From Minisyncoccota bacterium (GTDB taxonomy: Bacteria > Patescibacteriota > Minisyncoccia > Phycocordibacterales > UBA9973), in contig JBAYUP010000001.1 in assembly GCA_041675045.1 (NCBI GenBank), positions 24,094-88,093 on the forward strand: DNA of 64,000 bases. The letters are read 5' to 3'. Positions 7,885 to 63,079 of this stretch are shown here, in pieces. The position numbers and the translations under genes are program-made. The notes beneath the pieces were generated by a model, which worked only from the letters and a program-made list of their open reading frames with translations, was not told the origin of the DNA and made no database searches. Positions within the stretch are counted from its first letter, which is position 1; every line of letters starts with the position of its first letter.

Positions 7885-7999
7885 GTGAAATTTCTTATGT
7901 ACCCCACAGGAAATAAATACTCACTGCGAGCCCTCGTGATTTCCTACGGGGCAAGCATCTCTTAATTTACTTTTCACGACCGTGAAATTTCTTATGTAC
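7885..7999. repeat. 18-bp direct repeat GTGAAATTTCTTATGTAC (7885-7902 and 7982-7999) flanking hairpin copy 2 and the xer stop codon
   Basis: The second copy encodes the C-terminus of the recombinase (..VHKKFHG..). The first copy is a non-coding duplicate about 80 bp downstream, with further imperfect similarity extending about 12 more bp. Confidence 0.6.
7902..7951. repeat. Hairpin repeat copy 2: CCCCACAGGAAAT ... ATTTCCTACGGGG with nested CGAG-CCC-TCG
   Basis: Same architecture as the copy at 7487-7535. Confidence 0.45.
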
Positions 8000-8905
8000 A
8001 TCTCGTAACTGACTGTCGGTTACGTGCGTATATATTTGCGTTGTTGTGATATTCGCATGTCCGAGCATCATCTGTACCGAACGAATATCAGCACCATTTG
8101 AAAGCAAATCAGTGGCAAACGAGTGGCGAATAACGTGAGGTGTAACCTTTTTTGAAATACCAGCTTTTGTCGCATAATATTTAACGATTCGTTCAATCGA
8201 GCGGGGAGTGAGACGACCTGTCCCACCTGCACCATTACGTGAATACTGAATAAAGAGTGGCTCTGCTAAATCTTTGCGCGCTTTTAAATATGTACGAATA
8301 GCATCTTTTGCTGAAGGCGAGAGAAATACCACACGCACTTTTTCTCCTTTACCACGAATAGAAAACTCATCTTTTGATAAATCAAGATCACGATTAAGTG
8401 AGCATAATTCCGACAAACGAAGGCCTGTCGAGAAAAATAATTCGAGTATCGCCTTGTCACGAAGTGTTTTGAGTCCCTGTTCTGGCTTCACGTCATTTGT
8501 ATTAGGAGCAGAGAGAAGTCGACCAAGCTCATCACTTGAAATTAAATCAAGCGAACGCTCTTTGACTTTGGCTAAATCGATACGATCAGCGGGGAGGGAC
8601 TTGATCTCTCTCTTCATAAGATATTTGAGGAATGAACGAAGTGCAATGAGATGGTAGTTTTGGGTATTTTTCTTGAGCGTGGCTGATTGTTGTCCGCGAA
8701 CTTTCACTCCCGGTTGGCGATTCAAATGCAAACGAAATTCTCGAATCACATCATCGGTAATTTCCTTTGGGTCAATTACTTTGGAAAAGCTGAAAAAACG
8801 CGAAAGATAATAATCGTAATTAACTACGGTTTTTAAACTATTACCTTTCTCGATTTCTACATGCTCAAGAAATTCTCGTTTTAATTGTTCTATTTTTGAT
8901 GCCAT
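7967..8905 (-). CDS. xerC: Tyrosine recombinase, XerC/XerD family
   Basis: C-terminal catalytic region HVIRHSFATDLL...GADIRSVQMMLGHANITTTQIYTHV (HxxR and the Tyr nucleophile) and an N-terminal core-binding domain typical of Xer. Confidence 0.85.
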   Translation of the reverse strand: MASKIEQLKREFLEHVEIEKGNSLKTVVNYDYYLSRFFSFSKVIDPKEITDDVIREFRLHLNRQPGVKVRGQQSATLKKNTQNYHLIALRSFLKYLMKREIKSLPADRIDLAKVKERSLDLISSDELGRLLSAPNTNDVKPEQGLKTLRDKAILELFFSTGLRLSELCSLNRDLDLSKDEFSIRGKGEKVRVVFLSPSAKDAIRTYLKARKDLAEPLFIQYSRNGAGGTGRLTPRSIERIVKYYATKAGISKKVTPHVIRHSFATDLLSNGADIRSVQMMLGHANITTTQIYTHVTDSQLRDVHKKFHGREK

Positions 8906-12675: not shown

Positions 12676-12681
12676 CAATGT

Positions 12682-12801
12682 ATCCCGTTAGAGACCGCGG
12701 TCACGGTCTTAATACCACGGGTACAAATAAGACATTAACACAATAACTACAATGCGCAGGTATTTCACATGAATGTGATCGCGACCTGCCTCTAACGGGA
12801 T
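12682..12801 (+). promoter_or_regulatory. Inverted-repeat leader element, copy A: 5' arm ATCCCGTTAGAG (12682-12693), 3' arm CTCTAACGGGAT (12790-12801); the ATG at 12800 overlaps the 3' arm
   Basis: Perfect 12-bp inverted repeat around ~96 bp. The arms extend imperfectly (ACCGCGGTC ... GATCGCGACCTGC). Three further copies are in this window. Confidence 0.7.
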
Positions 12802-13714
12802 GGACGAAAAAACACCACAACAAAGTACCGAGCATGGCACCCCAGGAATACGAACATACGGAAGTGATATGGCTGATGCGATTCGTACAAATGAAGCGTC
12901 GGTAATTAAAATCGCACTTGCCGAACAAAAGAAAAGAGAGAGGGAAGCACTCACCCAAGTAGCCCAAGGAACAAAAACATCACGAGTGTTTCTCACACTC
13001 GGTGGCCTCATGTTTATTGTAGCTGCGATTCTTGGTGTTTCATTTGTTGTGCAACAAAAAACAAAAAAATCACTCCCCCAGGAAATCATAAGAAATCTTC
13101 CGGCGATTGTTTCATACGATGAAACACTATTTGCAGATGTTACTCCTATCACAGGAAGAGCAACAGTAGCCGATGGTATTAATAAAGAAATCTCGGATCA
13201 AACAAAGATAGGGTCTATACGGTCACTCTTCCTCACAAAACTTGTAAGTGGCACACCGAAAGTAATCACCATACAGGAATTGATTGGATTACTCGAAATG
13301 CGAATTCCTGAATCACTCCTTTCCTCATTGGCGCAAACATACATGATAGGAACATACGCACTTCCTGAAACCGATGAAACAGGCAAGCTCTACGGCAAAC
13401 AACATCTCTTTCTTTTGTTCCAAACAACTAACTACAATCAAACATACGCATCATTACTTGAATGGGAGAAGACAATGCTCGATGATATGTTCCTTCTTTT
13501 CAAAATTGATATTTCTGATAGAAAAATATTCGAAACACAATTTAAGGACACACTCATAGCAAACAAAGATGCTCGTGTTCTTGAAAAACCAAACGGTACT
13601 CCGGTCCTCTACTACATGTTCCTTGATAAAGAGACGTTTATCATAACCGATACAAAGGAAGCATTAAGAGAAATAGGATTACGATTAATCACTAAAAATA
13701 CGAAACCTCTCTAA
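12800..13714 (+). CDS. Hypothetical bitopic membrane protein (304 aa, one transmembrane helix then an extracytoplasmic domain)
   Basis: ORF begins right at the end of leader element A; hydrophobic segment LTLGGLMFIVAAILGVSFVV. Confidence 0.6.
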   Translation: MDEKTPQQSTEHGTPGIRTYGSDMADAIRTNEASVIKIALAEQKKREREALTQVAQGTKTSRVFLTLGGLMFIVAAILGVSFVVQQKTKKSLPQEIIRNLPAIVSYDETLFADVTPITGRATVADGINKEISDQTKIGSIRSLFLTKLVSGTPKVITIQELIGLLEMRIPESLLSSLAQTYMIGTYALPETDETGKLYGKQHLFLLFQTTNYNQTYASLLEWEKTMLDDMFLLFKIDISDRKIFETQFKDTLIANKDARVLEKPNGTPVLYYMFLDKETFIITDTKEALREIGLRLITKNTKPL

Positions 13715-23635: not shown

Positions 23636-24100
23636 ATGACTCAAGAAACACTCCAAAATACATCAATCAAAGATGCTTTCGACGCACTTGATGCGGAAAT
23701 GCAAAAAAAATTAACTGAAAAATTAAAAACAGAGGGTGTTTCAGATGGTACTATTGAAAAAGTAAAGACTGATCTATCAGAAAAATATACCCACAATAGA
23801 CAAATGGAGGAAGTGCGAAGTGCACTTCATGAAGAGTACGACAAAAAAACACACCACACAAAAGAGGAAATTGCACAATATCACTATATTCAGGACTTAA
23901 AGAGAATTGAAAAGATTAGAGAAGAATTCCCACTTCTTGAGGAAAAACAAAAAAGAACACCAATATGGCGTATTGGCGAAATTATGCGAATAAAAAAACA
24001 AAGAAAGGAAATGGTAAATTTGTATACGAAACTCACGCGAGCCGTCAGGAAATATGAGCTCAAAAAAAATGAAGCTGATTTATTCAACAAAAAACACTAA
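23636..24100 (+). CDS. Hypothetical charged protein (154 aa)
   Basis: ORF only; lies directly upstream of the 1443-aa gene. Confidence 0.5.
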   Translation: MTQETLQNTSIKDAFDALDAEMQKKLTEKLKTEGVSDGTIEKVKTDLSEKYTHNRQMEEVRSALHEEYDKKTHHTKEEIAQYHYIQDLKRIEKIREEFPLLEEKQKRTPIWRIGEIMRIKKQRKEMVNLYTKLTRAVRKYELKKNEADLFNKKH

Positions 24101-38066: not shown

Positions 38067-38216
38067 ATCCCGTTAGAGATTTTTTATGTCATATATGTAA
38101 CGGGAGGTGCATTAGCATACTTATTAAAATTATTGTATTTATTTAAAATGTATACGCCCCATGCAAAAATTGGATAATTTTAGAAAAAAAAACGATGGGG
38201 CTATCTCTAACGGGAT
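38067..38216 (+). promoter_or_regulatory. Inverted-repeat leader element, copy B: 5' arm ATCCCGTTAGAGAT (38067-38080), 3' arm ATCTCTAACGGGAT (38203-38216); the ATG at 38215 overlaps the 3' arm
   Basis: Perfect 14-bp inverted repeat around ~122 bp of AT-rich sequence. An internal partial arm GTAACGGGAGG lies at 38097-38107. Confidence 0.7.
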
Positions 38217-41142
38217 GAAGAAAATTCTACCGTATATATTTTTTATTGCGATATGTGTGAACATATTCACGCCTTTTTCTGCCATCCAATCAACTCCTCT
38301 CGTTGCTGAGGCAGCTCTTGATACAACCCTTGCTGGATATCAAAATGCATTCAACAAAATTAAAAGTGGTGTCACCCTAAATCAATCAGCAGTAACGTCA
38401 GCTGGTGGGATTATTGCTGATTTTCATATTGTTCTTGATACAGGATTAGCGTTGGGGGCAAACACAGAAGATATATATAATCACGTAGAAGCTCAAGGTA
38501 GAAATTTTGGAATCGGAGACACCGGCACTAATTTATACAGCACAAATGCTTTTGTTCTTGTTGTGAAAGACGCACTAACTGGACAAGTGGGTTTTGTGGA
38601 CGTCACACCTCGACTAATGATTGATGGTTCAAATAAAAGCTTGGCGGACAAAAGACCAAATGGGCCAGTCCGAAGCGAAACGGATGTAAGTATCAGCACA
38701 AGTCAATTCCCCCAGCTTACTCCTGGTAAAGACTACACCGCGACACTTTACTACCAAGCAGCTGGTGGAATAGGAAGTGGAGAGGGTAAAGGATATGGTG
38801 AATCAATACCAGGGTTATCTTCAAACAAAGACTACTTTGCAATTACCAGCCCGACCCCCTTCAAGACAGCAACCCCAACAAGTGGTGGCGGGACAGGAGT
38901 TGAAGGAACGCTCGGTACTGGTAAATCGACAGTAGTTGATTCCCAGGCTTCTCTTGATCCAATGCCAGGGTGTTCGATACTCGGAATGGGAGACGAGAAT
39001 GGATCAATTGTTGGATGCGCAGCTCAAATAATATATTACGTTATCTTTGTTCCAACATCATATCTCTTTGCGCTTGCCGGTCAATTTTTCGACTGGACAT
39101 TTGCATACTCTATTAGCGATGAATCATATCGAATTCCTTTTGTTGTTCAGGGGTGGGGAATCCTCCGTGATTTCGTTAACATGTTCTTTATCTTTGTTTT
39201 GCTCTATATTGCATTTCGTACAATACTCGGTGTTCATGGTGCAAAAACAAAAGACTTAATTATAAATGTCATCATTATTGGTCTTTTAATAAACTTTAGT
39301 TTATTTACAACACAAGTTATTGTTGATGCTTCAAATATTTTAGCGAGAGTATTCTATAGCGATGATGCCATTAGACTTACAGAGGGTCAGAATCGTGGAG
39401 CACTTGATGCAGCAGGAACAACAGCGGGTCCAAATGGGGAAATCCAATTATCTGCTGCCCTCATAGATAAGGTCAACCCCCAAAATCTTATCTTAAATTC
39501 AAAAAAGGTTAATGACTTCGGAACAACAGGAAATGATGTCGCCCAAAATAATAACGAAGATAGCGCAAACAGCATTGGAGCTGGGTCATTTATCTTAATC
39601 ACTATCCTTGCTATCGCTATTAATATCGTTGGCCTAATAACATTCCTCTCTGTTGGACTTATTTTCGTTGCTCGCGTAATCGGACTTTGGTTTGCGATGA
39701 TTTTTGCACCTATTGCATTCTTTAGTTATACCGTGCCGAGTCTAGCGAATAACAAAATATTTGGCATCCATCACTGGATTGAAGAGCTTTTAAAAATGGC
39801 ATTCTTGGCACCAATATTTATATTCTTCTTGTATCTTATCTTGCAATTCCTTGAGGGTCTTAATTTTATAAACCAAGGAGACCAAACAGGGGTGAAGTGG
39901 GTTATCGCTATCGTTGTACCGTTTATTTTCATAATGGTTCTTTTGCAACAAGCAAAAAGTATCGCACAAAAACTCTCAGGGGAACTCGGACAAAGAATTA
40001 CAGGGGCGCTCTCCACTGTTGGTGGTGTTGGACTTGGACTTGCAACAGGTGGCGCTGCCCTTGCAATGAGAGGGTCAGTTGGTAGAATCATGAATAAGCT
40101 AAACACAAATGACACACTAAATAATTGGGCCTCTGGAAAAACAGCGAGTGGTAAGGCAATGAGCGGAGGGCTAGGCTCATGGGCACTTCAAAGAGCGGCT
40201 ATTCTAGGAAAGAAAACTACTACTGCGGGAGCTAAGGGAAGTTTTGATTTCCGACAAACAGGATTAGCTGGTGGTATGTCTGGTGCACTTGGTGTCGATA
40301 TGGGCAAATACACAAACTATGTCGGACTTGGGACAAAAAGTGGGCTTGGCGGATATGCAAATGCACAGGCAAAAAAGATTGAGAAAGAAGAAACATTTGC
40401 AAAAAGTCTGGGATACGACCACGCAAAAGATCATGCCTTACAAGAAAAAATTGATGCTCGTAAAAAAGCAATTACTGATGCTGAAAAAATTCGTGATATG
40501 GCAAAAGCAACACTTACTGCAGATCCAAATAATGCTGAATCCAAAAAATCTTACGCGACAGCTTTGGCAAATGTTACCGCACTTAAATCTGGAGGCATGT
40601 ATGTAAATGATGCTGGAATTAAGCTAAACATAAAAGAAAGTCTCGCTGATTTTGAAAAAGCACAGGCAACTAACAAAACTGGTCGTGAACGAGAATTTTA
40701 TCTCTATAAACGACGACAATCTGGAAAAATCTACAACGAGAGTCATGGATTAAAACGTGACAGTGAAGATAACATAACTTCATTTGGCCACCCAGTATCA
40801 AGTGGAGCACAAGCAGGTAAACAATTTGCCAAGGAATTTGTTGAAGGATTTGGAAAAGGAGCAGTTGCAGGTGGTGCTGTGGGTATGTGGGCTGGACCCG
40901 CAGGTGCAGTAGCAGGTGCTGGTGCTGGTGGATTATTTATGGCAGTTCGAAATGTAGTTAATTACAGTGGAACAACCAATAGAAAGATTGGAGAAGCCCA
41001 CAATCCAAAACCAGGAAAATTTGAAGATTCTTATAAGCCAGGTTCAGCGCCGGCTCCGTCTGGGGGACACGACGATCACGGAGCTGGGCATGACGATCAT
41101 GGGGGAGGACACGACGATCACGGAGGTGGAGGGCATCACTAA
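38215..41142 (+). CDS. Large polytopic membrane protein (975 aa): signal peptide, soluble N-domain, at least 8 transmembrane helices, Gly/Ala-rich and His-rich C-terminus; candidate VirB6/TrbL/PrgH-like channel subunit
   Basis: Topology and position upstream of the VirB3-like and VirB4 genes. Start moved to the ATG at 38215 (MKKILPYIFFIAI signal peptide) because the six-frame start at 38161 lies inside the leader element. Assignment by synteny and topology only. Confidence 0.5.
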   Translation: MKKILPYIFFIAICVNIFTPFSAIQSTPLVAEAALDTTLAGYQNAFNKIKSGVTLNQSAVTSAGGIIADFHIVLDTGLALGANTEDIYNHVEAQGRNFGIGDTGTNLYSTNAFVLVVKDALTGQVGFVDVTPRLMIDGSNKSLADKRPNGPVRSETDVSISTSQFPQLTPGKDYTATLYYQAAGGIGSGEGKGYGESIPGLSSNKDYFAITSPTPFKTATPTSGGGTGVEGTLGTGKSTVVDSQASLDPMPGCSILGMGDENGSIVGCAAQIIYYVIFVPTSYLFALAGQFFDWTFAYSISDESYRIPFVVQGWGILRDFVNMFFIFVLLYIAFRTILGVHGAKTKDLIINVIIIGLLINFSLFTTQVIVDASNILARVFYSDDAIRLTEGQNRGALDAAGTTAGPNGEIQLSAALIDKVNPQNLILNSKKVNDFGTTGNDVAQNNNEDSANSIGAGSFILITILAIAINIVGLITFLSVGLIFVARVIGLWFAMIFAPIAFFSYTVPSLANNKIFGIHHWIEELLKMAFLAPIFIFFLYLILQFLEGLNFINQGDQTGVKWVIAIVVPFIFIMVLLQQAKSIAQKLSGELGQRITGALSTVGGVGLGLATGGAALAMRGSVGRIMNKLNTNDTLNNWASGKTASGKAMSGGLGSWALQRAAILGKKTTTAGAKGSFDFRQTGLAGGMSGALGVDMGKYTNYVGLGTKSGLGGYANAQAKKIEKEETFAKSLGYDHAKDHALQEKIDARKKAITDAEKIRDMAKATLTADPNNAESKKSYATALANVTALKSGGMYVNDAGIKLNIKESLADFEKAQATNKTGREREFYLYKRRQSGKIYNESHGLKRDSEDNITSFGHPVSSGAQAGKQFAKEFVEGFGKGAVAGGAVGMWAGPAGAVAGAGAGGLFMAVRNVVNYSGTTNRKIGEAHNPKPGKFEDSYKPGSAPAPSGGHDDHGAGHDDHGGGHDDHGGGGHH
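41064..41139 (+). repeat. Tandem 21-bp coding repeat (CACGACGATCACGGAGNTGGG x3) encoding GHDDHGx repeats at the C-terminus of the VirB6-like protein
   Basis: Seen directly in the sequence: ...GGHDDHGAGHDDHGGGHDDHGGGGHH*. Confidence 0.7.
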
Positions 41143-43090: not shown

Positions 43091-43098
43091 GTATATGA

Positions 43099-43222
43099 AT
43101 CCCGTTAGAAGTCGCGAACGCGTTATAATATAATGGATAGAAGTAATATGAAAATAAACCCAACAATTAAAAAAATAATTTCAGTAAGCTGCGAAAAGAT
43201 CGCGCTCTACTTCTAACGGGAT
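43099..43222 (+). promoter_or_regulatory. Inverted-repeat leader element, copy C: 5' arm ATCCCGTTAGAAGT (43099-43112), 3' arm ACTTCTAACGGGAT (43209-43222); the ATG at 43221 overlaps the 3' arm
   Basis: Perfect 14-bp inverted repeat around ~96 bp, sitting exactly between the two VirB4 ORFs. TATAAT at 43124-43129 inside the element. Confidence 0.7.
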
Positions 43223-45062
43223 GAATATATTTTCATCATTTTTTGGCAAAAAAGAAACACAAACAACAGGACAATCTGGCCCGGCTGTTATGCCGGTACT
43301 TCCAACCGAAATCTACCGCGCAGCAACACTAGAACTGCAGGATATTATTGCACCTTCAGCTCTTCAAATTACGCCGAAGGCACTCAACCTGGGAGATAAA
43401 ATCACACGAACATTTTTCGTGATTTCCTATCCAAGATTTTTAACAGATAATTGGTTTTCACCAATTGTTAACCTTGATAAAGTTTTTGATGTATCAATTA
43501 ATATTCATCCTATTGAAACAGGGGATATTCTTCGCTCATTCCAGAAAAAGGTTGCTGAAGTACAAAGTCAAATTTCAATACGTGAATCAAAAGGTCTCGT
43601 TCGTGATCCAATGCTTGATACTGCATATCGCGATCTTGAAGCGCTTCGTGATAGCTTGATGCAAGCCCAAGAAAAAATGTTTGATGTTGGGTTATACATC
43701 ACCGTTTACGCCGACAATGATTCTGATTTATTTAAAATTGAAAGTGAAATCAAGTCATTACTCGAATCAAAGCTTGTTTATTTGAAACCAGCACTCTTCC
43801 AGCAAGGGGAGGCATTTAAAAGTGTTATTCCGCTCGGCATGGATATTCTTGGTATCCATCAAAAACTTAACACGGAGCCACTTTCAAGCTTGTTCCCATT
43901 TGTATCATTCGACCTTACTTCAGATAAAGGTATTTTGTATGGAGTAAATCGCCACAACTCAAGTTTGATTATTTTCGACCGCTTTTCACTTCCGAACTAT
44001 AATTCTATTACTTTTGCGACATCTGGTGCTGGTAAATCATATGCAACAAAACTTGAAGTTATCCGAACACTTATGTTTGATACTGAAGTAATTGTTATTG
44101 ACCCAGAACGCGAATATGAATATCTAGCTGAAGCAATGGGCGGAAGATATTTCAACATTGCTCTTTCTTCTGATCACCATATCAATCCATTTGATTTACC
44201 TATCCCAAGTCCTGATGAGACAGGAGCGGATGTGCTTCGCTCAAATACCATTAACCTTGTCGGACTATTCCGTATCATGCTTGGTGGGCTCACCCCAGAA
44301 GAAGATTCAATCATCGACCGTGCCATTACTGAAACATACGCGATGAAGGACATTACACCTAATTCCAACTTTGCAAACATTGAACCACCACTTCTTACTG
44401 ATTTTGAAATGGTTCTTGCTGGCATGGAGGGAAGTGAGTCAGTTATTCAACGTCTTGCGAAATACACTCGTGGGTCATGGTCATCATTCCTTAACCAGCC
44501 ATCAAACGTAGATATTAATAGAAAATTTGTTGTTTTCTCGGTACGCGATATGGAAGACGAACTGAAACCAGTGGCAATGTATATCGTAACTCACTATATC
44601 TGGAACGCTGTTCGCAAAAACATTAAAAAACGTCTCCTTGTGGTAGATGAGGCATGGTGGATGATGAAATCAGAAGACACTGCGTCGTTCCTTTATTCAA
44701 TCGCAAAACGAGGCCGAAAATATTACCTTGGACTTGCTACCATCACTCAAGACGTGGGTGACTTCATGAAAAGCCCGTATGGTATCCCGATTGTTACAAA
44801 CTCATCAATCCAGCTTCTACTAAAACAATCCCCATCAACAGTTGATACCCTCCAAAAAACCTTTAATTTAACAGACGAAGAGAAATACCTCCTCTTGGAA
44901 GCAAATGTAGGAGAGGGAATATTCTTTGCTGGTTTGAAACACGTAGCTGTTAAAACAGTTGCCTCATATACCGAAGATCAGATTATTACCTCTGACCCAT
45001 CTCAAATCCTAGCAATCAAAAAAGCTCGAGATGAACTCATTGCCTCTGGTGGTGTAAAATAG
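43221..45062 (+). CDS. VirB4/TrbE/CagE family type IV secretion ATPase, central and C-terminal ATPase portion (613 aa)
   Basis: Walker A FATSGAGKSYATK, Walker B LLVVDEAWWMM, conserved ..GLATITQD.. region. Together with 42452..43090 it totals 825 aa, the normal VirB4 length. Confidence 0.85.
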   Translation: MNIFSSFFGKKETQTTGQSGPAVMPVLPTEIYRAATLELQDIIAPSALQITPKALNLGDKITRTFFVISYPRFLTDNWFSPIVNLDKVFDVSINIHPIETGDILRSFQKKVAEVQSQISIRESKGLVRDPMLDTAYRDLEALRDSLMQAQEKMFDVGLYITVYADNDSDLFKIESEIKSLLESKLVYLKPALFQQGEAFKSVIPLGMDILGIHQKLNTEPLSSLFPFVSFDLTSDKGILYGVNRHNSSLIIFDRFSLPNYNSITFATSGAGKSYATKLEVIRTLMFDTEVIVIDPEREYEYLAEAMGGRYFNIALSSDHHINPFDLPIPSPDETGADVLRSNTINLVGLFRIMLGGLTPEEDSIIDRAITETYAMKDITPNSNFANIEPPLLTDFEMVLAGMEGSESVIQRLAKYTRGSWSSFLNQPSNVDINRKFVVFSVRDMEDELKPVAMYIVTHYIWNAVRKNIKKRLLVVDEAWWMMKSEDTASFLYSIAKRGRKYYLGLATITQDVGDFMKSPYGIPIVTNSSIQLLLKQSPSTVDTLQKTFNLTDEEKYLLLEANVGEGIFFAGLKHVAVKTVASYTEDQIITSDPSQILAIKKARDELIASGGVK

Positions 45063-50554: not shown

Positions 50555-50727
50555 ACGAAGAATATATACTATAATCGCTTATTATGCAATGCTTTTCAGC
50601 TAATTCTATTATCCACAGGTTATAAACAGGGTAATCCAGATGTTTGATTACAGGGACTTTTTAAATCAGAGTATACTGTAGTGTACAAAAGAAATTTTAG
50701 AAAATTATCACTTAACATACTAACAGG
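50555..50727. promoter_or_regulatory. oriC-region intergenic between rpmH and dnaA, with a perfect DnaA box TTATCCACA at 50609-50617
   Basis: Consensus 9-mer seen directly. A degenerate box lies nearby (GGTAATCCAGA). The rpmH-dnaA intergenic is a classic oriC location. Confidence 0.6.
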
Positions 50728-52080
50728 ATGAACACAAAAGAACTTTGGAATAACTGCCTTTCTGAAATTGAAACAAGTATTTCAAAAGCAAACTTTACAA
50801 CATGGTTTAAAAACACCTCTATCGCAAAAGAAGATGGGGGAATACTCTACATCGGTGTTCCAAATGAGTTCGTTAAAGATTGGTTATACAACAAGTTTCA
50901 TAAACTTATTTTAAAAACCCTCATGAATTATGAAGAGGGAGTTCGTGGTATTGAATATGTAATTCATAAACATGATGGAAAAGAAAGATCAACAGAAAAC
51001 GATGTCTCCAAAATTGTTCTTGGTCTAAACAAAGAATTACCATTAAACGACCTCTATACAAACAAAGACGATAACCTTAACCCTAAATACAACTTTAATT
51101 CATTTATTGTTGGGCCGTTTAACGAGCTTGCATACGCTGTTGCACAAGCAATTATTACTAACCCTGGCACAAGTTACAACCCATTTTTTGTATATGGGGG
51201 AACAGGGCTTGGTAAAACACACATGATTCAAGCGATTGGAAACACAATCAAAGTAAAACATCCATCAAAAAAAATATATTATGTGAGTCTGGAAAAATTC
51301 ACCATTGACTATGTTAATTCAATCCAAAACAAAAACCCAAACTCATTCAAAGAAAAATATAGAAAATACGATGCAATCATTATAGATGATATTCAGTTCA
51401 TTACAGGAAAAGACAAAACACAAGAAGAATTGTTTCATCTTTTTAATATTTTCTATGAAAACAATAAGCAAATTATCTTTTCATCTGATAAACACCCTAA
51501 TTTTATTCAAGGATTAGAAGAGCGCCTCCAGTCACGATTTGCATCAGGTATGACCGTACAAATAACTGAACCAGACTATGAATCAAGAATAGCTATAATT
51601 AAAGCTAAGTTTGAACAAACAAACTGTTTAATAGAACAAGAGGTCATTGAATATCTCGCGGAAGCCCTTGAAGGAAATATCCGAGAATTAGAGGGAAGTC
51701 TTAATTCTGTTGTAATGCAATCACAACTAAAAAACAAAGCGCTCTCTATTACAGAAGTAAAAACACTTATAAAAAATAACATTAAACCGAAGAAAACTGT
51801 TGCAATTAAAGATGTTGTTGTTGTAATTGCTGAATATTACAATATTCCAGAAAGTGTTATTTATGAAAAAACTCGCCGAAAAGAGATTGTTCATGCACGT
51901 CAGGTTGCAATGTATATCCTCCGTGAAGACTTTAACATCTCGTATCCACTGATTGGTCAGAAAATGGGTGGTAGAGACCACACAACAGTAATTCATTCCC
52001 ATCTGAAGATAAAAGACGACCTCAAAACAGACCCTTCACTTCTTCAAGAAATCGAAAAAATTAGAATTTTGTTTAAATAG
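50728..52080 (+). CDS. dnaA: Chromosomal replication initiator DnaA
   Basis: AAA+ Walker A GGTGLGKTHMIQAIGN, Walker B IIDDIQF, and a C-terminal DNA-binding domain (..HTTVIHSHLKIKDDL..). Confidence 0.95.
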   Translation: MNTKELWNNCLSEIETSISKANFTTWFKNTSIAKEDGGILYIGVPNEFVKDWLYNKFHKLILKTLMNYEEGVRGIEYVIHKHDGKERSTENDVSKIVLGLNKELPLNDLYTNKDDNLNPKYNFNSFIVGPFNELAYAVAQAIITNPGTSYNPFFVYGGTGLGKTHMIQAIGNTIKVKHPSKKIYYVSLEKFTIDYVNSIQNKNPNSFKEKYRKYDAIIIDDIQFITGKDKTQEELFHLFNIFYENNKQIIFSSDKHPNFIQGLEERLQSRFASGMTVQITEPDYESRIAIIKAKFEQTNCLIEQEVIEYLAEALEGNIRELEGSLNSVVMQSQLKNKALSITEVKTLIKNNIKPKKTVAIKDVVVVIAEYYNIPESVIYEKTRRKEIVHARQVAMYILREDFNISYPLIGQKMGGRDHTTVIHSHLKIKDDLKTDPSLLQEIEKIRILFK

Positions 52081-52292
52081 AAAAAGTGCCTGTGGAAAAA
52101 GAAAGAATTATATGTGAATAAATTGTTTATAAGCTCTCAAGAAAAAGATATCCATGAGTAATCCACAAACAACTTATTTTAAGTTTTACATAATGACCCA
52201 AAACAGCTTACAAAATAACAACCAAAAGTAATCCACATATCCCCAGGACTAATAGTAGTAATAATGTATTTAATAAATAATAATAAACATAT
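52081..52292. promoter_or_regulatory. dnaA-dnaN intergenic with DnaA-box-like 9-mers (TAATCCACA at 52159-52167 and 52229-52237; TGTGGAAAA at 52091-52099) and an AT-rich putative unwinding stretch at 52255-52290
   Basis: One-mismatch boxes on both strands plus AATAATGTATTTAATAAATAATAATAAACATAT directly before dnaN. Confidence 0.55.
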
Positions 52293-53390
52293 ATGAAAGT
52301 AGAATGCTCCATAGAAAAAATAAAATCAGCACTCACACTCGTTGAACGCCTCACTGGTAAAAATTTAACTCTTCCTGTTTTAGGTTCTGTTCTTTGGGTT
52401 GCTACTGACAAGGTATTAAAATTAAGATCAACAAACCTTAGTATTGGTATAGAAGTTCGCATACCTGCAAAAATAGAGAAAGAAGGCATCGTTGCTATTC
52501 GAGGGGATGTTCTTTCTTCACTCTTCTCAATTTTTTCTGGTGATTCAAAATCAACATTCGAGTTAGTAAATGACAATCTTCTTGTTAAAACAAAAACAAG
52601 TACTATTTTATTAAAAAGTATTCCACATGATGATTTCCCAACTATTCCACTTCTTTCTGGGGAAGACATTACACTACCAGCACATAAAATAATTGAAGGA
52701 ATGCGGTCTGTTGTGTATGCTGCTTCTGTTTCAGAAGTTAAACCCGAAATTGGGAGTGTATATATTTATCCAGAAGATGATACTCTTGTTTTTGTTTCAA
52801 CAGATTCGTTTCGTTTAGCAGAGAAAAAAATAAAAATAAAACAAAAGCTTTCTTTTGATGGGATACTCATTCCACTTAAGAATGCAGTTGAAATTATAAA
52901 AGTTTTTGACCATATTGAAGATGATGTTGTTGTTACTCTTCAGAAAAATCAAATATCATTTACAACAGAAAACATATACCTAACCTCTCGAGTTGTTGAT
53001 GGTGCCTTCCCTGATTACAAACAAATAATTCCTAAAAAATCTACAACAAAAGCAACAATCTTGAAACAAGACTTTATTTCATCTCTTAAGATTTCGAATA
53101 TTTTTTCAGATAAGTTTAATCAAATAACAATAACGGTTGATCCTGAAGAAAAAGTTTTTGAAGTAGAGGCAAAAAATACTGATATTGGGGAAAATACAAC
53201 CTTTGTTGCGGGGTCGTTTTCTGGAGAATCAGTTTCAGCTAATTTTAATTATCGCTATATTGTGGATTGTTTCCCTTCGCTTTCTGGGGATAGTATTGCT
53301 CTTGAATTAAACGGCAGTAATAAACCAATGATAATTCGTCCAGTGGGGGATGTTTCTTTTATGTATCTTGTAATGCCAATGAATAGATAA
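52293..53390 (+). CDS. dnaN: DNA polymerase III beta sliding clamp
   Basis: 365 aa with a three-domain clamp pattern; N-terminus MKVECSIEKIKSALTLVERLTGKNLTLPVLGSVL is typical. Confidence 0.9.
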   Translation: MKVECSIEKIKSALTLVERLTGKNLTLPVLGSVLWVATDKVLKLRSTNLSIGIEVRIPAKIEKEGIVAIRGDVLSSLFSIFSGDSKSTFELVNDNLLVKTKTSTILLKSIPHDDFPTIPLLSGEDITLPAHKIIEGMRSVVYAASVSEVKPEIGSVYIYPEDDTLVFVSTDSFRLAEKKIKIKQKLSFDGILIPLKNAVEIIKVFDHIEDDVVVTLQKNQISFTTENIYLTSRVVDGAFPDYKQIIPKKSTTKATILKQDFISSLKISNIFSDKFNQITITVDPEEKVFEVEAKNTDIGENTTFVAGSFSGESVSANFNYRYIVDCFPSLSGDSIALELNGSNKPMIIRPVGDVSFMYLVMPMNR

Positions 53391-60266: not shown

Positions 60267-61967
60267 TTACTCCTCATAAAAATCAACCACACTACCGACT
60301 TCGTCGTAGGAGGTGATACCTTTTAGGATTTTGACGATGCCGTCTTCGCGCATGTCGAGGTATCCTTGGTGTGAAGCAATTTCTTTGATTTCTCGTTCAC
60401 TCGGATTGTTAGGAATTATTTTTTCAATATCAGCTGTTTTTATAATTGCTTCGAATACTCCAATTCGTCCTTTGTATCCTGTGTTATTACACTCACCACA
60501 ACCGACAGCCCCATATATTTTTAGGGAAGCATTTGTATCAACTCCATATTTTGAAAAATCTTTATTGTGAGCTATTGCGTTATCAGTTATTTTTTTGATT
60601 ATTTTAATTTGTTCTTCTGTGGCTGGGATTTCTTTTCTACAGTTGAGACAAAGTTTTCGAACAAGACGCTGGGCAATAGAAAGAGAGAGTGCTGATACCA
60701 ATATCTTTGGATTAACATCAAGATCAATCAAGCGCGGGATAACACCTGCTGCGTTGTTTGTGTGAAGTGTCGAGAAAACCAAGTGACCAGTGAGTGCGGA
60801 TTCAACTGCGATTTTTGCTGTTTCGCTATCACGAACTTCTCCCACCATGATCACATCAGGGTCTTGGCGGAGCGATGAACGCAAACCCTCGAGGAATGTA
60901 TACCCCTTCTCACTTTCTGTTTGTGTTTGGGTTATTCCTGGTAAGTGGTATTCAATAGGGTCTTCGATTGTGATTATTTTTATTTCAGGAGAATATATTT
61001 TCTGTAAGAACGAGTAGAGGGTTGTTGTTTTACCACTTCCTGTTGGACCAGTAAGGAGAATCATACCATTCGGCTTTTTAATCTCACGCATAAAAACTTC
61101 AAACAAAGATGGTTCAATACCAAGATCCTCAATCTTTACACGAATTGATTTCGGATTAAGAATACGCATAACGATAGACTCTCCGTATGCACCAGGAATA
61201 AGTGAGACACGCAAACTGATTTCCTCTTCGTCGAGGAATATACTAAAGCGCCCATCTTGAGCAACTGCCGAAGCAGTGATTTTGAGACCTGCTAAAAGTT
61301 TGATTCGAGAATTTAGGAATTTATGAATCGCTGGTGGTATCTCCATGATTTCATGTAGGATTCCATCGAGACGAAATCGTAACCGAACGGTATTTTCTTC
61401 TGGTTCAAAGTGTAGGTCAGAGGCGTTGATAGCAATGGCTCCAGCCAGTGCTATTTCGAGAATATGTGAAGTTGTGTGCGTTGCGTCTTGTTCAGCACGT
61501 TCAATAGCTTTTTTAATATCATCGATATTTTTAATATCCTTCATGATGTCTTTTAATGCAGAGCCAGAGACAGAGATAGCACCTGCTCGTGATTCAGATG
61601 CGTATGAAAGCTCGGTGTAGCGTTCCCATGCTTTCGCCAAGCTCGTGCCCGATGCCATGTAAAAGTGGGGGATGTATCCATGTTCAGTGAAATACTTTTT
61701 TAATTCAACGAGTGTTTCTGCGTGTGGAGCACGTACGGCAATATGTAAATCTTTACCAGTGAGTTTAAATGGTGCAATTCCGAGTGCCTCAGCTTCTTTT
61801 TGGGGGATAGAACGAAGAGCTTCGTTCTCGATAGGGATATTTGCGAGATTTATTGGTTGAACATCATACTTCGCTTCAGCGAGAATTTGCACCAAGTCCT
61901 CCTCTTCTTGTCTTTTGAAGTCATCGAGGTCTTTTTGTTGTTTCTCGTCATTAAAATGAATGGTCAT
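60267..61967 (-). CDS. pilB: GspE/PilB family secretion ATPase (type IV pilus assembly ATPase PilB-like)
   Basis: Walker A LLTGPTGSGKTTTLYS, Asp box, Walker B ..VIMVGEVRD.., His box ..GHLVFSTLHTN.., C-terminal tetracysteine CLNC...CGEC, and an N-terminal GspE_N-like domain. Confidence 0.9.
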   Translation of the reverse strand: MTIHFNDEKQQKDLDDFKRQEEEDLVQILAEAKYDVQPINLANIPIENEALRSIPQKEAEALGIAPFKLTGKDLHIAVRAPHAETLVELKKYFTEHGYIPHFYMASGTSLAKAWERYTELSYASESRAGAISVSGSALKDIMKDIKNIDDIKKAIERAEQDATHTTSHILEIALAGAIAINASDLHFEPEENTVRLRFRLDGILHEIMEIPPAIHKFLNSRIKLLAGLKITASAVAQDGRFSIFLDEEEISLRVSLIPGAYGESIVMRILNPKSIRVKIEDLGIEPSLFEVFMREIKKPNGMILLTGPTGSGKTTTLYSFLQKIYSPEIKIITIEDPIEYHLPGITQTQTESEKGYTFLEGLRSSLRQDPDVIMVGEVRDSETAKIAVESALTGHLVFSTLHTNNAAGVIPRLIDLDVNPKILVSALSLSIAQRLVRKLCLNCRKEIPATEEQIKIIKKITDNAIAHNKDFSKYGVDTNASLKIYGAVGCGECNNTGYKGRIGVFEAIIKTADIEKIIPNNPSEREIKEIASHQGYLDMREDGIVKILKGITSYDEVGSVVDFYEE

Positions 61968-62108
61968 CCCGTTTAGAAGCAGGTCGCGGTCAATAGAGCG
62001 ACACTACTTAAGTTATGTATAATTTTTGTATTTATATTGAACATTTTTTCTTATTTTTTAACTGCGACCACGCCTGCCTGCCGGCAAAGGCAGGGCTTCT
62101 AACGGGAG
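61965..62108 (-). promoter_or_regulatory. Inverted-repeat leader element, copy D (minus strand): 5' arm CTCCCGTTAGAAG (plus 62096-62108), 3' arm CTTCTAAACGGGAT (plus 61966-61979), abutting the pilB ATG at 61967-61965; a minus-strand TATAAT lies at 62127-62122
   Basis: Same arm sequence as copies A-C, with one extra A in the 3' arm. About 116 bp of interior with the hairpin GCCTGCC...GGCAGGC. GCGACCTG precedes the 3' arm as in copy A. Confidence 0.65.
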
Positions 62109-62152
62109 TCATATAGGCCTTATTATATCTTACCGAGAGGTAAACAAGGTAC

Positions 62153-62181
62153 TTGACATTTGCATCAAAATATGCTAACAT
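62153..62181 (+). promoter_or_regulatory. Promoter TTGACA - 17 nt - TGcTAACAT for the plus-strand gene at 62207, divergent from the pilB leader
   Basis: Consensus -35, 17-nt spacer, extended -10. Confidence 0.5.
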
Positions 62182-62206
62182 AGGGCAAAATCGAAATTGA
62201 CAGAAA

Positions 62207-63079
62207 ATGAAAAAAATAGTTTTAATGATGCTTGTGATCCTAGGTTGGTCACATGCACAGGCGCAAAGGTTACCTGTTTTGAATTACGGACTCTATTCTT
62301 TCGAGGATGTGCGCGACAGTCTTGTTTTTCCAAATACTCCTAAGGCAAAATCATGGAGAAAAGTGGTGATAGCAAACATTAATTCTCAATTAAGGTTAGC
62401 GGGAAGTACTCCTGTTTTAACTGAGAGTAACTTTGCTTCATACATGACACCTACGTATGTATGGGAAGAAGAAAGAACGTGGGATCCAGGAGAGTATGAG
62501 AATTCTGGGTGGAATCCAAGGACTCAAAAAGTAGAAATGTTTTTAAGCACATCTGGTTTTAAGGGGTTTGTTGGGGTTTTCCATTACGATAATATCGCAA
62601 TGGCATTCTACCGAAACACTTGTGTAAATGTACTTAAGGGTCCGTTTTGGCTTGTGCCAAGTATCCCTAAAGCTCCAACTTCTAATCCAATGGCAAAAGC
62701 CGCGGAGAAGGAAAAAGAGGAGAAGGTTACATTTGTAATATTGTCTCAAACTCCATCATGTAATCATGGTGGAATGATGGTGCAAAGAGTTACGGGTGGA
62801 AACTACTTTAGTCTTAATTTGGGGATTAGTGTGGTTAATACACCAAACACAAATTTCAGTGGTCAAAGTGCTCCATTTGTTATTTATCCAACCAGGAAAT
62901 TGCGTCAAGGTGGTCCAGTATGGGCTCCTGGGCACGCAGCAAATTCTGGCAACCCCCAAAACGTACAAGGCTTCAGTGCTTTATTAAATCCCGGCAATCC
63001 AGCAGGAGTTAATGGGGTCCTAAGCCCAAACCCAGTTAATGCTCTTGGTTTTGCTGCAGACCCAAGCAATTATGAGTAG
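62207..63079 (+). CDS. Secreted hypothetical protein (290 aa)
   Basis: Signal peptide MKKIVLMMLVILGWSHAQA. Confidence 0.55.
   Translation: MKKIVLMMLVILGWSHAQAQRLPVLNYGLYSFEDVRDSLVFPNTPKAKSWRKVVIANINSQLRLAGSTPVLTESNFASYMTPTYVWEEERTWDPGEYENSGWNPRTQKVEMFLSTSGFKGFVGVFHYDNIAMAFYRNTCVNVLKGPFWLVPSIPKAPTSNPMAKAAEKEKEEKVTFVILSQTPSCNHGGMMVQRVTGGNYFSLNLGISVVNTPNTNFSGQSAPFVIYPTRKLRQGGPVWAPGHAANSGNPQNVQGFSALLNPGNPAGVNGVLSPNPVNALGFAADPSNYE

Follow-up and report, generated by a model that had tools for sequence, protein, structure and literature searches.

The 64,000 nucleotide (nt) stretch of DNA considered here, referred to as the window, covers positions 24,094 to 88,093 of contig JBAYUP010000001.1 in the assembly of a Minisyncoccota bacterium (GCA_041675045.1; GTDB lineage Bacteria; Patescibacteriota; Minisyncoccia; Phycocordibacterales; UBA9973), and carries on its minus strand the gene pilB, which is directly preceded by a palindromic element with conserved inverted arms (Table 1, copy D). 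The pilB open reading frame (ORF) codes for a 566 amino acid (aa) protein with T2SSE (1.8e-115) and MshEN Pfam domains, the N-terminus of which (MTIHF...) lines up with its orthologues from the first residue. Read along the minus strand from position 62127 to 61965, the sequence consists of TATAAT, aaggcctat, ATGAC, TCCCGTTAGAAGC, 116 nt, GCTTCTAAACGGG and ATG. A first-pass annotation of the same DNA had described this order as TATAAT (62127-62122), 13 nt, CTCCCGTTAGAAG (62108-62096), 116 nt and the 3' motif CTTCTAAACGGGATG ahead of the pilB start, and all of these coordinates are exact, with CTTCTAAACGGG directly preceding the pilB ATG (61967-61965). The additional A that the 3' arm contains when compared with the reverse-complemented 5' arm, and from which a 1 nt bulge had been predicted, is likewise present. 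The window corresponds to the reverse complement of a 90 kb metagenome contig in ENA (ERZ27247358 k141_139993). Overlooked in that annotation was that every 5' arm in the window is itself preceded by a start codon and two further nucleotides, which repeat the start of the gene downstream. The final base of the copy D 3' arm is the A of the pilB ATG, and this ATG is a start codon rebuilt by insertion. Given that a -10 box is situated 9 nt before the original ATG, the pilB messenger RNA (mRNA) is leaderless or nearly so.

Table 1. Copies of the element in the window and features of the pilB locus (CDS, coding sequence; P1, helix formed by the two arms; uORF, upstream open reading frame)
Feature	Position	Strand	Basis or remarks
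Copy A, type II	12683..12800	+	ATGTA upstream at 12678-12682
Copy B, atypical interior	38068..38215	+	Upstream GTGAA, 6 nt past a TATAAT box
Copy C, type II	43100..43221	+	ATGAA upstream at 43095-43099
pilB (GspE/PilB-family ATPase) CDS	60267..61967	-	ORF and Pfam
Copy D, TCCCGTTAGAAGC ... GCTTCTAAACGGGA, 141 nt	61967..62107	-	Sequence, fold, orthologous sites without the element
5' arm TCCCGTTAGAAGC, 5' strand of P1	62095..62107	-	Sequence and fold
3' arm GCTTCTAAACGGGA, 3' strand of P1 with 1 nt A bulge	61967..61980	-	Sequence and fold
GACCGCGACCTGC, 3' strand of inner helix	61979..61991	-	Fold; pairs with GCAGGCGTGGTC at 62077-62066
Small inserted hairpin CCTGCC-TTTGCC-GGCAGG	62077..62094	-	Fold
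Original pilB start ATGAC, retained upstream copy of the duplicated target	62108..62112	-	Empty sites TATAAT-N9-ATGAC(T/A)
uORF of 26 codons (MTPVRSPAFAGRQAWSQLKNKKKCSI, then stop), from the original ATG into the element	62032..62112	-	Reading frame
pilB -10 box TATAAT	62122..62127	-	9 nt before the original ATG; kept in all close orthologues, spacing 7-9 nt
Divergent promoter TTGACA-17-(TG)cTAACAT for the ORF at 62207	62153..62181	+	Consensus match
290 aa ORF with signal peptide-like N-terminus	62207..63079	+	ORF list; no Pfam family

Three further copies of the element (A to C) are found in the window. Allowing up to two mismatches, five matches each to the 5' and 3' arm motifs were observed in the window, against 0.84 and 0.33 expected, respectively, and no shuffled sequence reached five. 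The four copies each finish in the ATG of a long ORF and fold with z-scores of -4.2 (A), -2.2 (B), -5.0 (C) and -4.3 (D) against shuffled sequences, with a value of -44.1 kcal/mol for the copy D leader. The sequences ahead of the four 5' arms (ATGTA, GTGAA, ATGAA and ATGAC) differ in accordance with the genes that follow. These encode an unknown 304 aa protein downstream of pnp (copy A; 12800-13714), a 975 aa secreted protein (copy B; 38215-41142) and a VirB4/TraG P-loop ATPase (copy C; 43221-45062) which, together with pilB and tsaE, represent the motif-associated genes on the contig. The last A of the element and the duplicated TG restore an ATG, leaving the protein unchanged. In the ORF list, the gene following copy B begins at 38161, within the element, as a 993 aa protein; a signal peptide-like sequence (MKKILPYIFF) begins at 38215, and this is probably the native start. 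The copy preceding tsaE is a fifth, degenerate one on the same contig (L001 879-997, approximately 65240-65358 in window numbering, just past the window end), with the upstream flank GGGGGACTTG/TCCCG instead of ATGNN. The ACTTG flank recurs at three other loci (L014, L018 and L078), and the public TsaE gene call reaches 33 nt into this copy.

The pilB orthologues indicate how copy D came to be at this site. Eighty pilB loci were taken from metagenomes without reference to the motif, the twelve closest of which share 68-79 % identity. Eleven of these twelve have an empty site, in which a conserved TATAAT is followed 7-9 nt further on by a single ATGAC (e.g. gaTATAATaagacctatATGACTATC in L122), and no arms were found within 260 nt of pilB in approximately forty more distant orthologues. 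The sole filled site among the twelve (L123) contains an element after ATGA rather than ATGAC, with a different interior (type I hairpin, described below), and the displacement by one base together with this different interior indicates an insertion independent of copy D. The empty orthologous sites with a single target, along with the direct repeats around the element, show that copy D was inserted, and as judged from this comparison it is a recent, lineage-specific insertion at +5/+6 of a leaderless pilB, with (A)TGAC duplicated. The first-pass annotation had viewed the motif as the mark of a regulon of pilus, competence and type IV secretion system (T4SS) genes recognised in trans. Its contentions that copy D and the other copies form one family, and that local duplication was not responsible, are borne out. 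The regulon with a coherent function is not, as the upstream regions of the pilB orthologues, to which that annotation had itself pointed as a check, lack the motif in eleven of the twelve closest and the forty or so distant cases, and the associated genes are incoherent. It is still plausible that the arms are recognised by a factor acting in trans, be it a transposase, a recombinase or a protein that binds RNA, with the comparative evidence favouring mobility over pilus regulation. A known RNA family or conserved cis-regulatory leader was also considered and rejected, with no Rfam family matched and the element not kept at the pilB orthologues; at the gathering score Rfam yielded only tRNAs, and a permissive search of positions 61900-62200 (E up to 10) only a chance match to a snoRNA.

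When species-representative genomes were scanned with the exact pattern TCCCGTTAGA-N97-127-TCTAACGGGATG, for which approximately two chance matches are expected, at least 120 loci were obtained, nearly all of them in Patescibacteria. Among the matches listed, the carriers include Saccharibacteria, many Parcubacteria/Paceibacterota lineages, Kerfeldbacteria and Kazan; the family counts given here (such as 147 copies) are those of copies in the fetched loci and rest on these matches. The architecture of the family comprises ATG NN, the element TCCCGTTAGA ... TCTAACGGG and the ATG NN of the gene, such that an element of approximately 100-145 nt, running from TCCCGTTAGA to TCTAACGGGA, is located after the ATG and 1-3 nt of a gene and is flanked by a direct repeat. 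The gap range of the scan cuts the length distribution at 117 nt, and a tight element length is not claimed. The 5' arm is preceded by ATG and two nucleotides in 106/147 copies, by ATG and one in nine and by ATG and three in five. In 98 of the 106, the upstream NN is identical to the two nucleotides following the downstream ATG (permutation mean 38, maximum 56). The target duplication thus varies in length (TGN, TGNN or TGNNN, if the terminal A is counted with the element), and the occurrence of GTG or CTG upstream with ATG downstream (copy B, L022, L028, L046 and L088) fits an element ending in A with a duplicated TGNN. The ends form terminal inverted repeats, of which 10 nt are the same in all copies, as set by the search, and three further base pairs (bp) covary. 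Tandem copies occur at four loci (L054 5472-5713, L010 5898-6281, L012 and L073) and share one ATGAA junction, the junction forming a palindrome of two 13 bp arms with a 4-6 nt spacer. At L041 (2087-2234), a 32 nt mini-copy, comprising the arms and a 6 nt loop, is nested within a further copy, and a duplicated CGAAG flanks it.

Within the 1.38 Mb of DNA that was fetched, nearly all arms belong to pairs with a distance of 100-140 nt; neither orphan arms nor arm pairs separated by more than 200 nt were found in these 1.38 Mb (whole genomes were not searched). Several sources of the copies were tried and rejected. No autonomous insertion sequence with the same ends and no orphan arms were found in this DNA, with a looser search at two mismatches giving only noise; viral contigs yielded no match that would speak for carriage by phages; and vertical inheritance at orthologous genes is at odds with an interior identity of 0.50-0.64, compared with 0.58 +/- 0.06 for random pairs. 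Copies are also found in metagenome-assembled genomes (MAGs) labelled as Omnitrophota (L019 and L073), Phycisphaerae (L102) and Gammaproteobacteria (L041 and L048), and those of the Omnitrophota have a distinct extension of the arm helix (AGACC/GGTCT and AGAACC/GGTTCT). These copies outside the Patescibacteria may reflect a truly wider distribution or mis-binned contigs. Overall, the family is likely to represent a non-autonomous palindromic mobile element, resembling MITEs (miniature inverted-repeat transposable elements) or REPINs, that is dispersed across the Patescibacteria and located nearly only at start codons.

The arms pair to form a helix (P1) of 13 bp and an additional N2:U pair, in which the second base after the ATG is paired with the U of the AUG (146/153 copies). 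Positions 11 to 13 of P1 covary, approximately 95 % being Watson-Crick pairs (AT 81/GC 63, AT 78/GC 59 and TA 72/CG 67), and at the RNA level P1 would bury the rebuilt AUG in a covarying helix of 13-14 bp. Two types of interior can be distinguished. In type II, to which copies A, C and D belong, P1 is followed by a 4 nt 3' bulge (AYCU) and a 7 bp helix, P2, which also covaries. In type I, a hairpin (ACGG-stem-loop-stem-CC) is located 1 nt before the 3' strand of P1, with twenty-eight distinct, fully complementary stems among the 43/55 copies with a simple ungapped stem. The inner helix (type II) or the stacked 3' hairpin (type I) extends P1 into a composite helix of approximately 21 bp. Copy D represents a type II sub-type with an additional CCTGCC/GGCAGG hairpin; this hairpin inside the 5' arm is also observed in an unrelated MAG (L035 5178-5310), which defines the sub-type. 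The interior is in sense orientation relative to the gene in approximately 110-116 copies and antisense in approximately 9-12 (about 8 %), at different loci, and the antisense copies keep the ATGNN repeat. A (C)GGGA motif is found 20-40 nt inside approximately 40 % of the sense copies, its complement being rare, and could pair with the 5' arm as a transient alternative hairpin. No positioned promoter was detected inside the element on either strand, as -10- and -35-like hexamers are diffuse. An internal, outward-directed promoter that would recreate a leaderless mRNA was rejected on account of this scatter over both strands with no positional peak. No Shine-Dalgarno sequence at a functional spacing was found either, the region from -13 to -1 being YYTCTAACGGG.

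The restriction to start codons is also evident in a sample drawn independently of the element, since all eight to nine elements in the 426 kb of pilB loci lie exactly at the start codon of a gene. Of the complete ORFs downstream of family copies, 124/136 are at least 60 aa long (median 233 aa), and most of the others are the first of a tandem pair. Twenty randomly chosen downstream proteins have unrelated functions, with Pfam profiles aligning from residue 1: PheT, L17, L9, IF-3, IleRS, a class II aminoacyl-tRNA synthetase, TopA, SecD, PBP2 and TsaE, as well as DsbA-like, Pol III delta', EamA, solute-binding, polysaccharide flippase, SIMPL and peptidoglycan-binding proteins and three without a family. 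The housekeeping genes among the targets include topA, ileS, pheT, infC, rplI and rplQ, and the associated genes are without functional coherence. In 81 % of the copies the ATG is followed by AA, AG or GA, compared with approximately 34 % of background ORFs. Furthermore, 19 % of the copies have a -10 box at a spacing of 6 nt from the upstream ATG, against 11.5 % of background ORFs, and for spacings of 6-9 nt the values are 43 % and 30 %, respectively; many of the targets, though not all, are leaderless genes. Among the element-free ORFs of at least 150 aa (n = 914), TAnnnT boxes are most frequent at a distance of exactly 6 nt upstream of the ATG (11.5 %), and leaderless mRNAs appear to be generally common in Patescibacteria. 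The specificity for start codons is real and not fully explained. A preference for ATG-purine-purine and purifying selection are likely to contribute, and binding of the conserved arms by a recombinase that is site-specific or recognises hairpins is a further possibility.

A helix that hides the start codon of housekeeping genes raises the matter of how these genes are expressed. Among the copies with a 5 nt offset (n = 114), the interior is stop-free in the frame of the uORF in thirty-eight, compared with fourteen in each of the other two frames (Fisher p = 9e-6). The length phases are represented by 58, 32 and 24 copies, with an excess of those in which the uORF frame runs up to the 3' arm UAA (chi-square p = 2e-4). 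The uORF is open in 30/58 copies of this phase (UAA-CGGG-AUG), 7/32 of the phase with an overlapping UGA and 1/24 of the in-frame phase, in which an N-terminal extension would result; read-through is rare in the latter, with the depletion alone not significant. The UAA of the 3' arm is located 4 nt before the real AUG, and about a third of the family end their uORF there. The uORF peptides are alike only at their arm-encoded ends. A conserved leader peptide (MxPVR...) was rejected, given that these residues are arm-encoded, the frame shifts with the 4, 5 or 6 nt offset and the middle is not conserved. Such a bias in frame and phase would arise if ribosomes initiated at the retained AUG, unwound the helix by translating through it and reinitiated at the rebuilt AUG. 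The sequence of events may be envisaged as follows. The element inserts after the ATG and 1-3 nt of a gene, with its final A and the duplicated TG rebuilding the start codon, and the helix of the arms, stretched to approximately 21 bp, would hide the rebuilt AUG. Ribosomes would keep starting at the retained original AUG by means of the native initiation signals of the gene and translate the uORF into the element, melting the helix, so that the real start would be exposed or the ribosome handed over to it by translational coupling. The element would in this way offset its own damage, and such neutralisation would account for its tolerance in essential genes. Opening of the helix by ribosomes that begin at the original start, with coupling to the real one, has moderate support.

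Four other explanations of the copies can be weighed against this evidence. The first holds that they act as a conserved leader with a cis-regulatory function, for instance as a riboswitch, a thermosensor or a site bound by a protein, placing pilus, T4SS and competence genes under one trans-acting factor. Identical arms at several genes, including those for PilB and a VirB4-like ATPase, a start codon held in a stable helix and identical -13 to -1 regions, which could in principle give common control, are all in keeping with such a leader, and the Neisseria REP2/CREN repeats upstream of pilC1 offer a precedent (PMC3184786). However, the element is lacking at eleven of the twelve closest pilB orthologues and at more distant ones, the genes that carry it are functionally incoherent, the direct repeats and empty sites speak for insertion, and the interiors are neither conserved between copies nor matched in Rfam; this explanation is thus very unlikely. 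The same empty sites and target duplications are foreign to an invertible DNA switch, in which a recombinase would flip the interior of approximately 95 bp between the 13 bp inverted repeats and so turn the gene on or off. The inverted repeats around a short segment beside the start codon, the 8 % or so of copies with opposite interior and intact flanks, the opposite orientations at orthologous genes in L007 and L084 and the tyrosine recombinase gene in the window (7967-8905) could all be accommodated by such a switch. Nevertheless, the L007 and L084 interiors are not reverse complements of each other, no positioned promoter exists inside the element on either strand and essential housekeeping genes are among the targets, which makes an inverton slightly less credible still than a conserved leader.

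The remaining two explanations concern the ribosome and the transcript. In programmed translational bypassing, likened to that of T4 gene 60 and of the byp elements in Magnusiomyces mitochondria, the initiator fMet-tRNA would hop from the upstream AUG to the identical downstream AUG and leave the element undecoded. The insertion does make matched take-off and landing sequences, with an ATGNN on either side of a compact hairpin, and essential genes need efficient expression. A gap of approximately 120 nt is far in excess of known hops, however, and there is no nascent peptide at a first codon, the upstream ATG is missing in about 15 % of the copies, and decoding of the element is indicated by open uORFs that stop at the 3' arm UAA, so that bypassing is extremely improbable. 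RNase III is known to process T7 R1.1-like bulged hairpins and Correia hairpins, and the same insertion origin could be combined with an RNase III-type cleavage near the bulge of the helix of approximately 21 bp, freeing the 3' arm and the AUG. Both interior types make a composite helix of approximately two turns, type II with a 14 bp P1, a 4 nt 3' bulge and a 7 bp P2 and type I with P1 and a stacked hairpin of 7-9 bp one nucleotide off, and the viability of antisense copies suggests that the symmetric helix is the essential part. Processing of this kind would nonetheless leave the uORF frame and phase bias unexplained and still require a 13 bp duplex to come apart after cleavage, and it is considered unlikely, if less so than the other three.

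Several observations weigh against the preferred reading of a mobile element whose start-codon insertions are relieved by translation of the uORF. Only copies with exact arms, an ATG on the 3' side and a 97-127 nt gap were accepted in the scan, and the conservation of arms and length is therefore in part a product of ascertainment. The copies are not phylogenetically independent. The 1.38 Mb of DNA fetched yielded neither a transposase nor an autonomous element sharing these ends. The preference for ATG-purine-purine alone would place approximately 15 % of tolerated sites at true starts (on crude gene calls), compared with more than 90 % observed, and this preference combined with lethality inside genes was rejected as the full cause of the start specificity. 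An upstream ATG is absent from approximately 15 % of the copies, so the uORF is not essential everywhere. Two-thirds of the family uORFs stop early, including those of all four window copies (12-27 codons), which end in the AU-rich loop, that of copy D 64 nt before the AUG; in copies A to D, coupling could thus proceed through melting of the helix only. Finally, the counts of G-U versus A-C mismatches (13/13 in P1, 7/2 in the type I hairpin and approximately 8/4 in type II) give no clear strand signal and do not tell folded RNA from folded DNA.

Beyond the element, the intergenic region shared with pilB contains the divergent promoter noted in the first-pass annotation, which is a good match, with TTGACA (62153-62158), a 17 nt spacer and TAACAT (62176-81) preceded by TG agreeing with the consensus at 10/12 positions, and is kept in the intergenic regions of orthologues. 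At a distance of 4 kb from copy A, the window codes for a 312 aa tyrosine recombinase (7967-8905, minus strand; Phage_integrase and SAM-like N-terminal domains), which is probably an Xer-type housekeeping enzyme. The genes dnaA and dnaN (50728-53390, plus strand; also L001 15837-15970), with the RNase P protein gene beyond, suggest that the chromosomal origin region is located here; the cumulative GC skew climbs monotonically over the window with no inflection at dnaA/dnaN. The sequence ACTAACAGGATG before the dnaA start (50718-50730) is like the 3' arm TCTAACGGGATG at 10/12 positions, no 5' arm was found there, and the likeness is probably due to chance.

The element family is apparently undescribed. 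Literature searches on the sequence strings and on MITE/REPIN, leaderless or inverted-repeat features in candidate phyla radiation bacteria yielded nothing, and a search on translational bypassing found nothing describing the element. That such elements, spread throughout the Patescibacteria and possibly in some Omnitrophota, home to translation starts and bring a built-in rescue, with the ATG regenerated and the helix opened by a uORF ending at a UAA 4 nt before the start, is a tentative and somewhat doubtful proposal. If the homing is mechanistic rather than a matter of survivorship, a recombinase or RNA-linked process that recognises start codons would be implied, and if the host exploits the helices, a layer of translational control would extend genome-wide over approximately 2 % of genes, including essential ones. 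For the window, the tempting inference of a pilus/T4SS regulon is removed. In terms of annotation, a relic is all that the upstream ATG represents, and starts may be misplaced by gene callers, as for the ORF from 38161 and the extended tsaE, and the family marks the starts of dozens of genes, many of them leaderless, in organisms with minimal genomes. It also offers a natural system for studying how ribosomes deal with a start codon buried in a helix of 13-21 bp, and with several Saccharibacteria now cultivable and transformable, the coupling or processing mechanism and the mobility of the element are open to direct testing.

Among the known systems, the MITEs Correia/NEMIS, ERIC, RUP and bcr1 are short (approximately 100-160 bp), non-coding and multi-copy, with terminal inverted repeats and target duplications (PMC3184786). 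The presence or absence of copies between relatives, the hairpins within mRNAs and the location of many copies 5' of genes are features shared with the element described here (PMC3184786). However, known MITEs insert into intergenic regions at short targets such as TA, rebuild no start codon and have a known or inferred cognate transposase, while the present element is in register with start codons, rebuilds them, is distributed phylum-wide and has no cognate transposase in the 1.38 Mb of fetched DNA. Correia elements furthermore carry promoters and an integration host factor (IHF) site, whereas no positioned promoter is found here. The REP2/CREN repeats of Neisseria and the inverted repeats (IR) of Borrelia are found directly upstream of many genes and supply an ATG fused to the ORF, with REP2 located before pilC1 (PMC3184786). 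REP2/CREN provide a promoter, ribosome-binding site and ATG and act as a host-contact regulon, in contrast to the present element, which supplies only the ATG. Neither they nor the Borrelia repeats have long-range inverted repeats at their ends in which the start codon is paired, and no empty sites or target duplications are cited for them, all of which are seen here.

Like REPINs, the element has two conserved inverted arms with a variable spacer, which form one long hairpin in which arm pairing is kept, and the two also share tens of copies per genome and long persistence. REPINs are extragenic, typically at the 3' ends of genes, with arms that are each palindromic with GTAG, and are mobilised by a single-copy RAYT (Y1 HUH) gene, whereas the present element is located at start codons. 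Its likeness to the Rickettsia palindromic elements (RPEs) and byp elements lies in selfish palindromic insertions that are tolerated in essential genes of reduced genomes with the product surviving and, for byp, in matched codons given by an insertion-derived repeat. RPEs are read in-frame and become part of the protein, and byp elements lie inside ORFs, where the ribosome hops over them; the present element differs from both in being situated at the very start and leaving the protein unchanged, with the evidence favouring a separate uORF with reinitiation. Integron attC sites are similar in that they fold into a hairpin whose loop varies, have extrahelical bases on one of the strands and keep a fixed polarity. 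The GTTAGAR/YTCTAAC of the arms also matches the attC core (GTTRRRY/RYYYAAC) at 6/7 positions. The order of the boxes is reversed, however (GTT...AAC, not AAC...GTT), and the copies are solitary and at gene starts rather than ends, with no cassette arrays. As to the mobilising enzyme, the abutted arms of tandem copies, which resemble a recombinase core, and the bulged hairpin, which recalls attC, may serve as leads only. Among all of the systems compared, the combination of phased insertion at start codons, regeneration of the start and phylum-wide spread is peculiar to this element.

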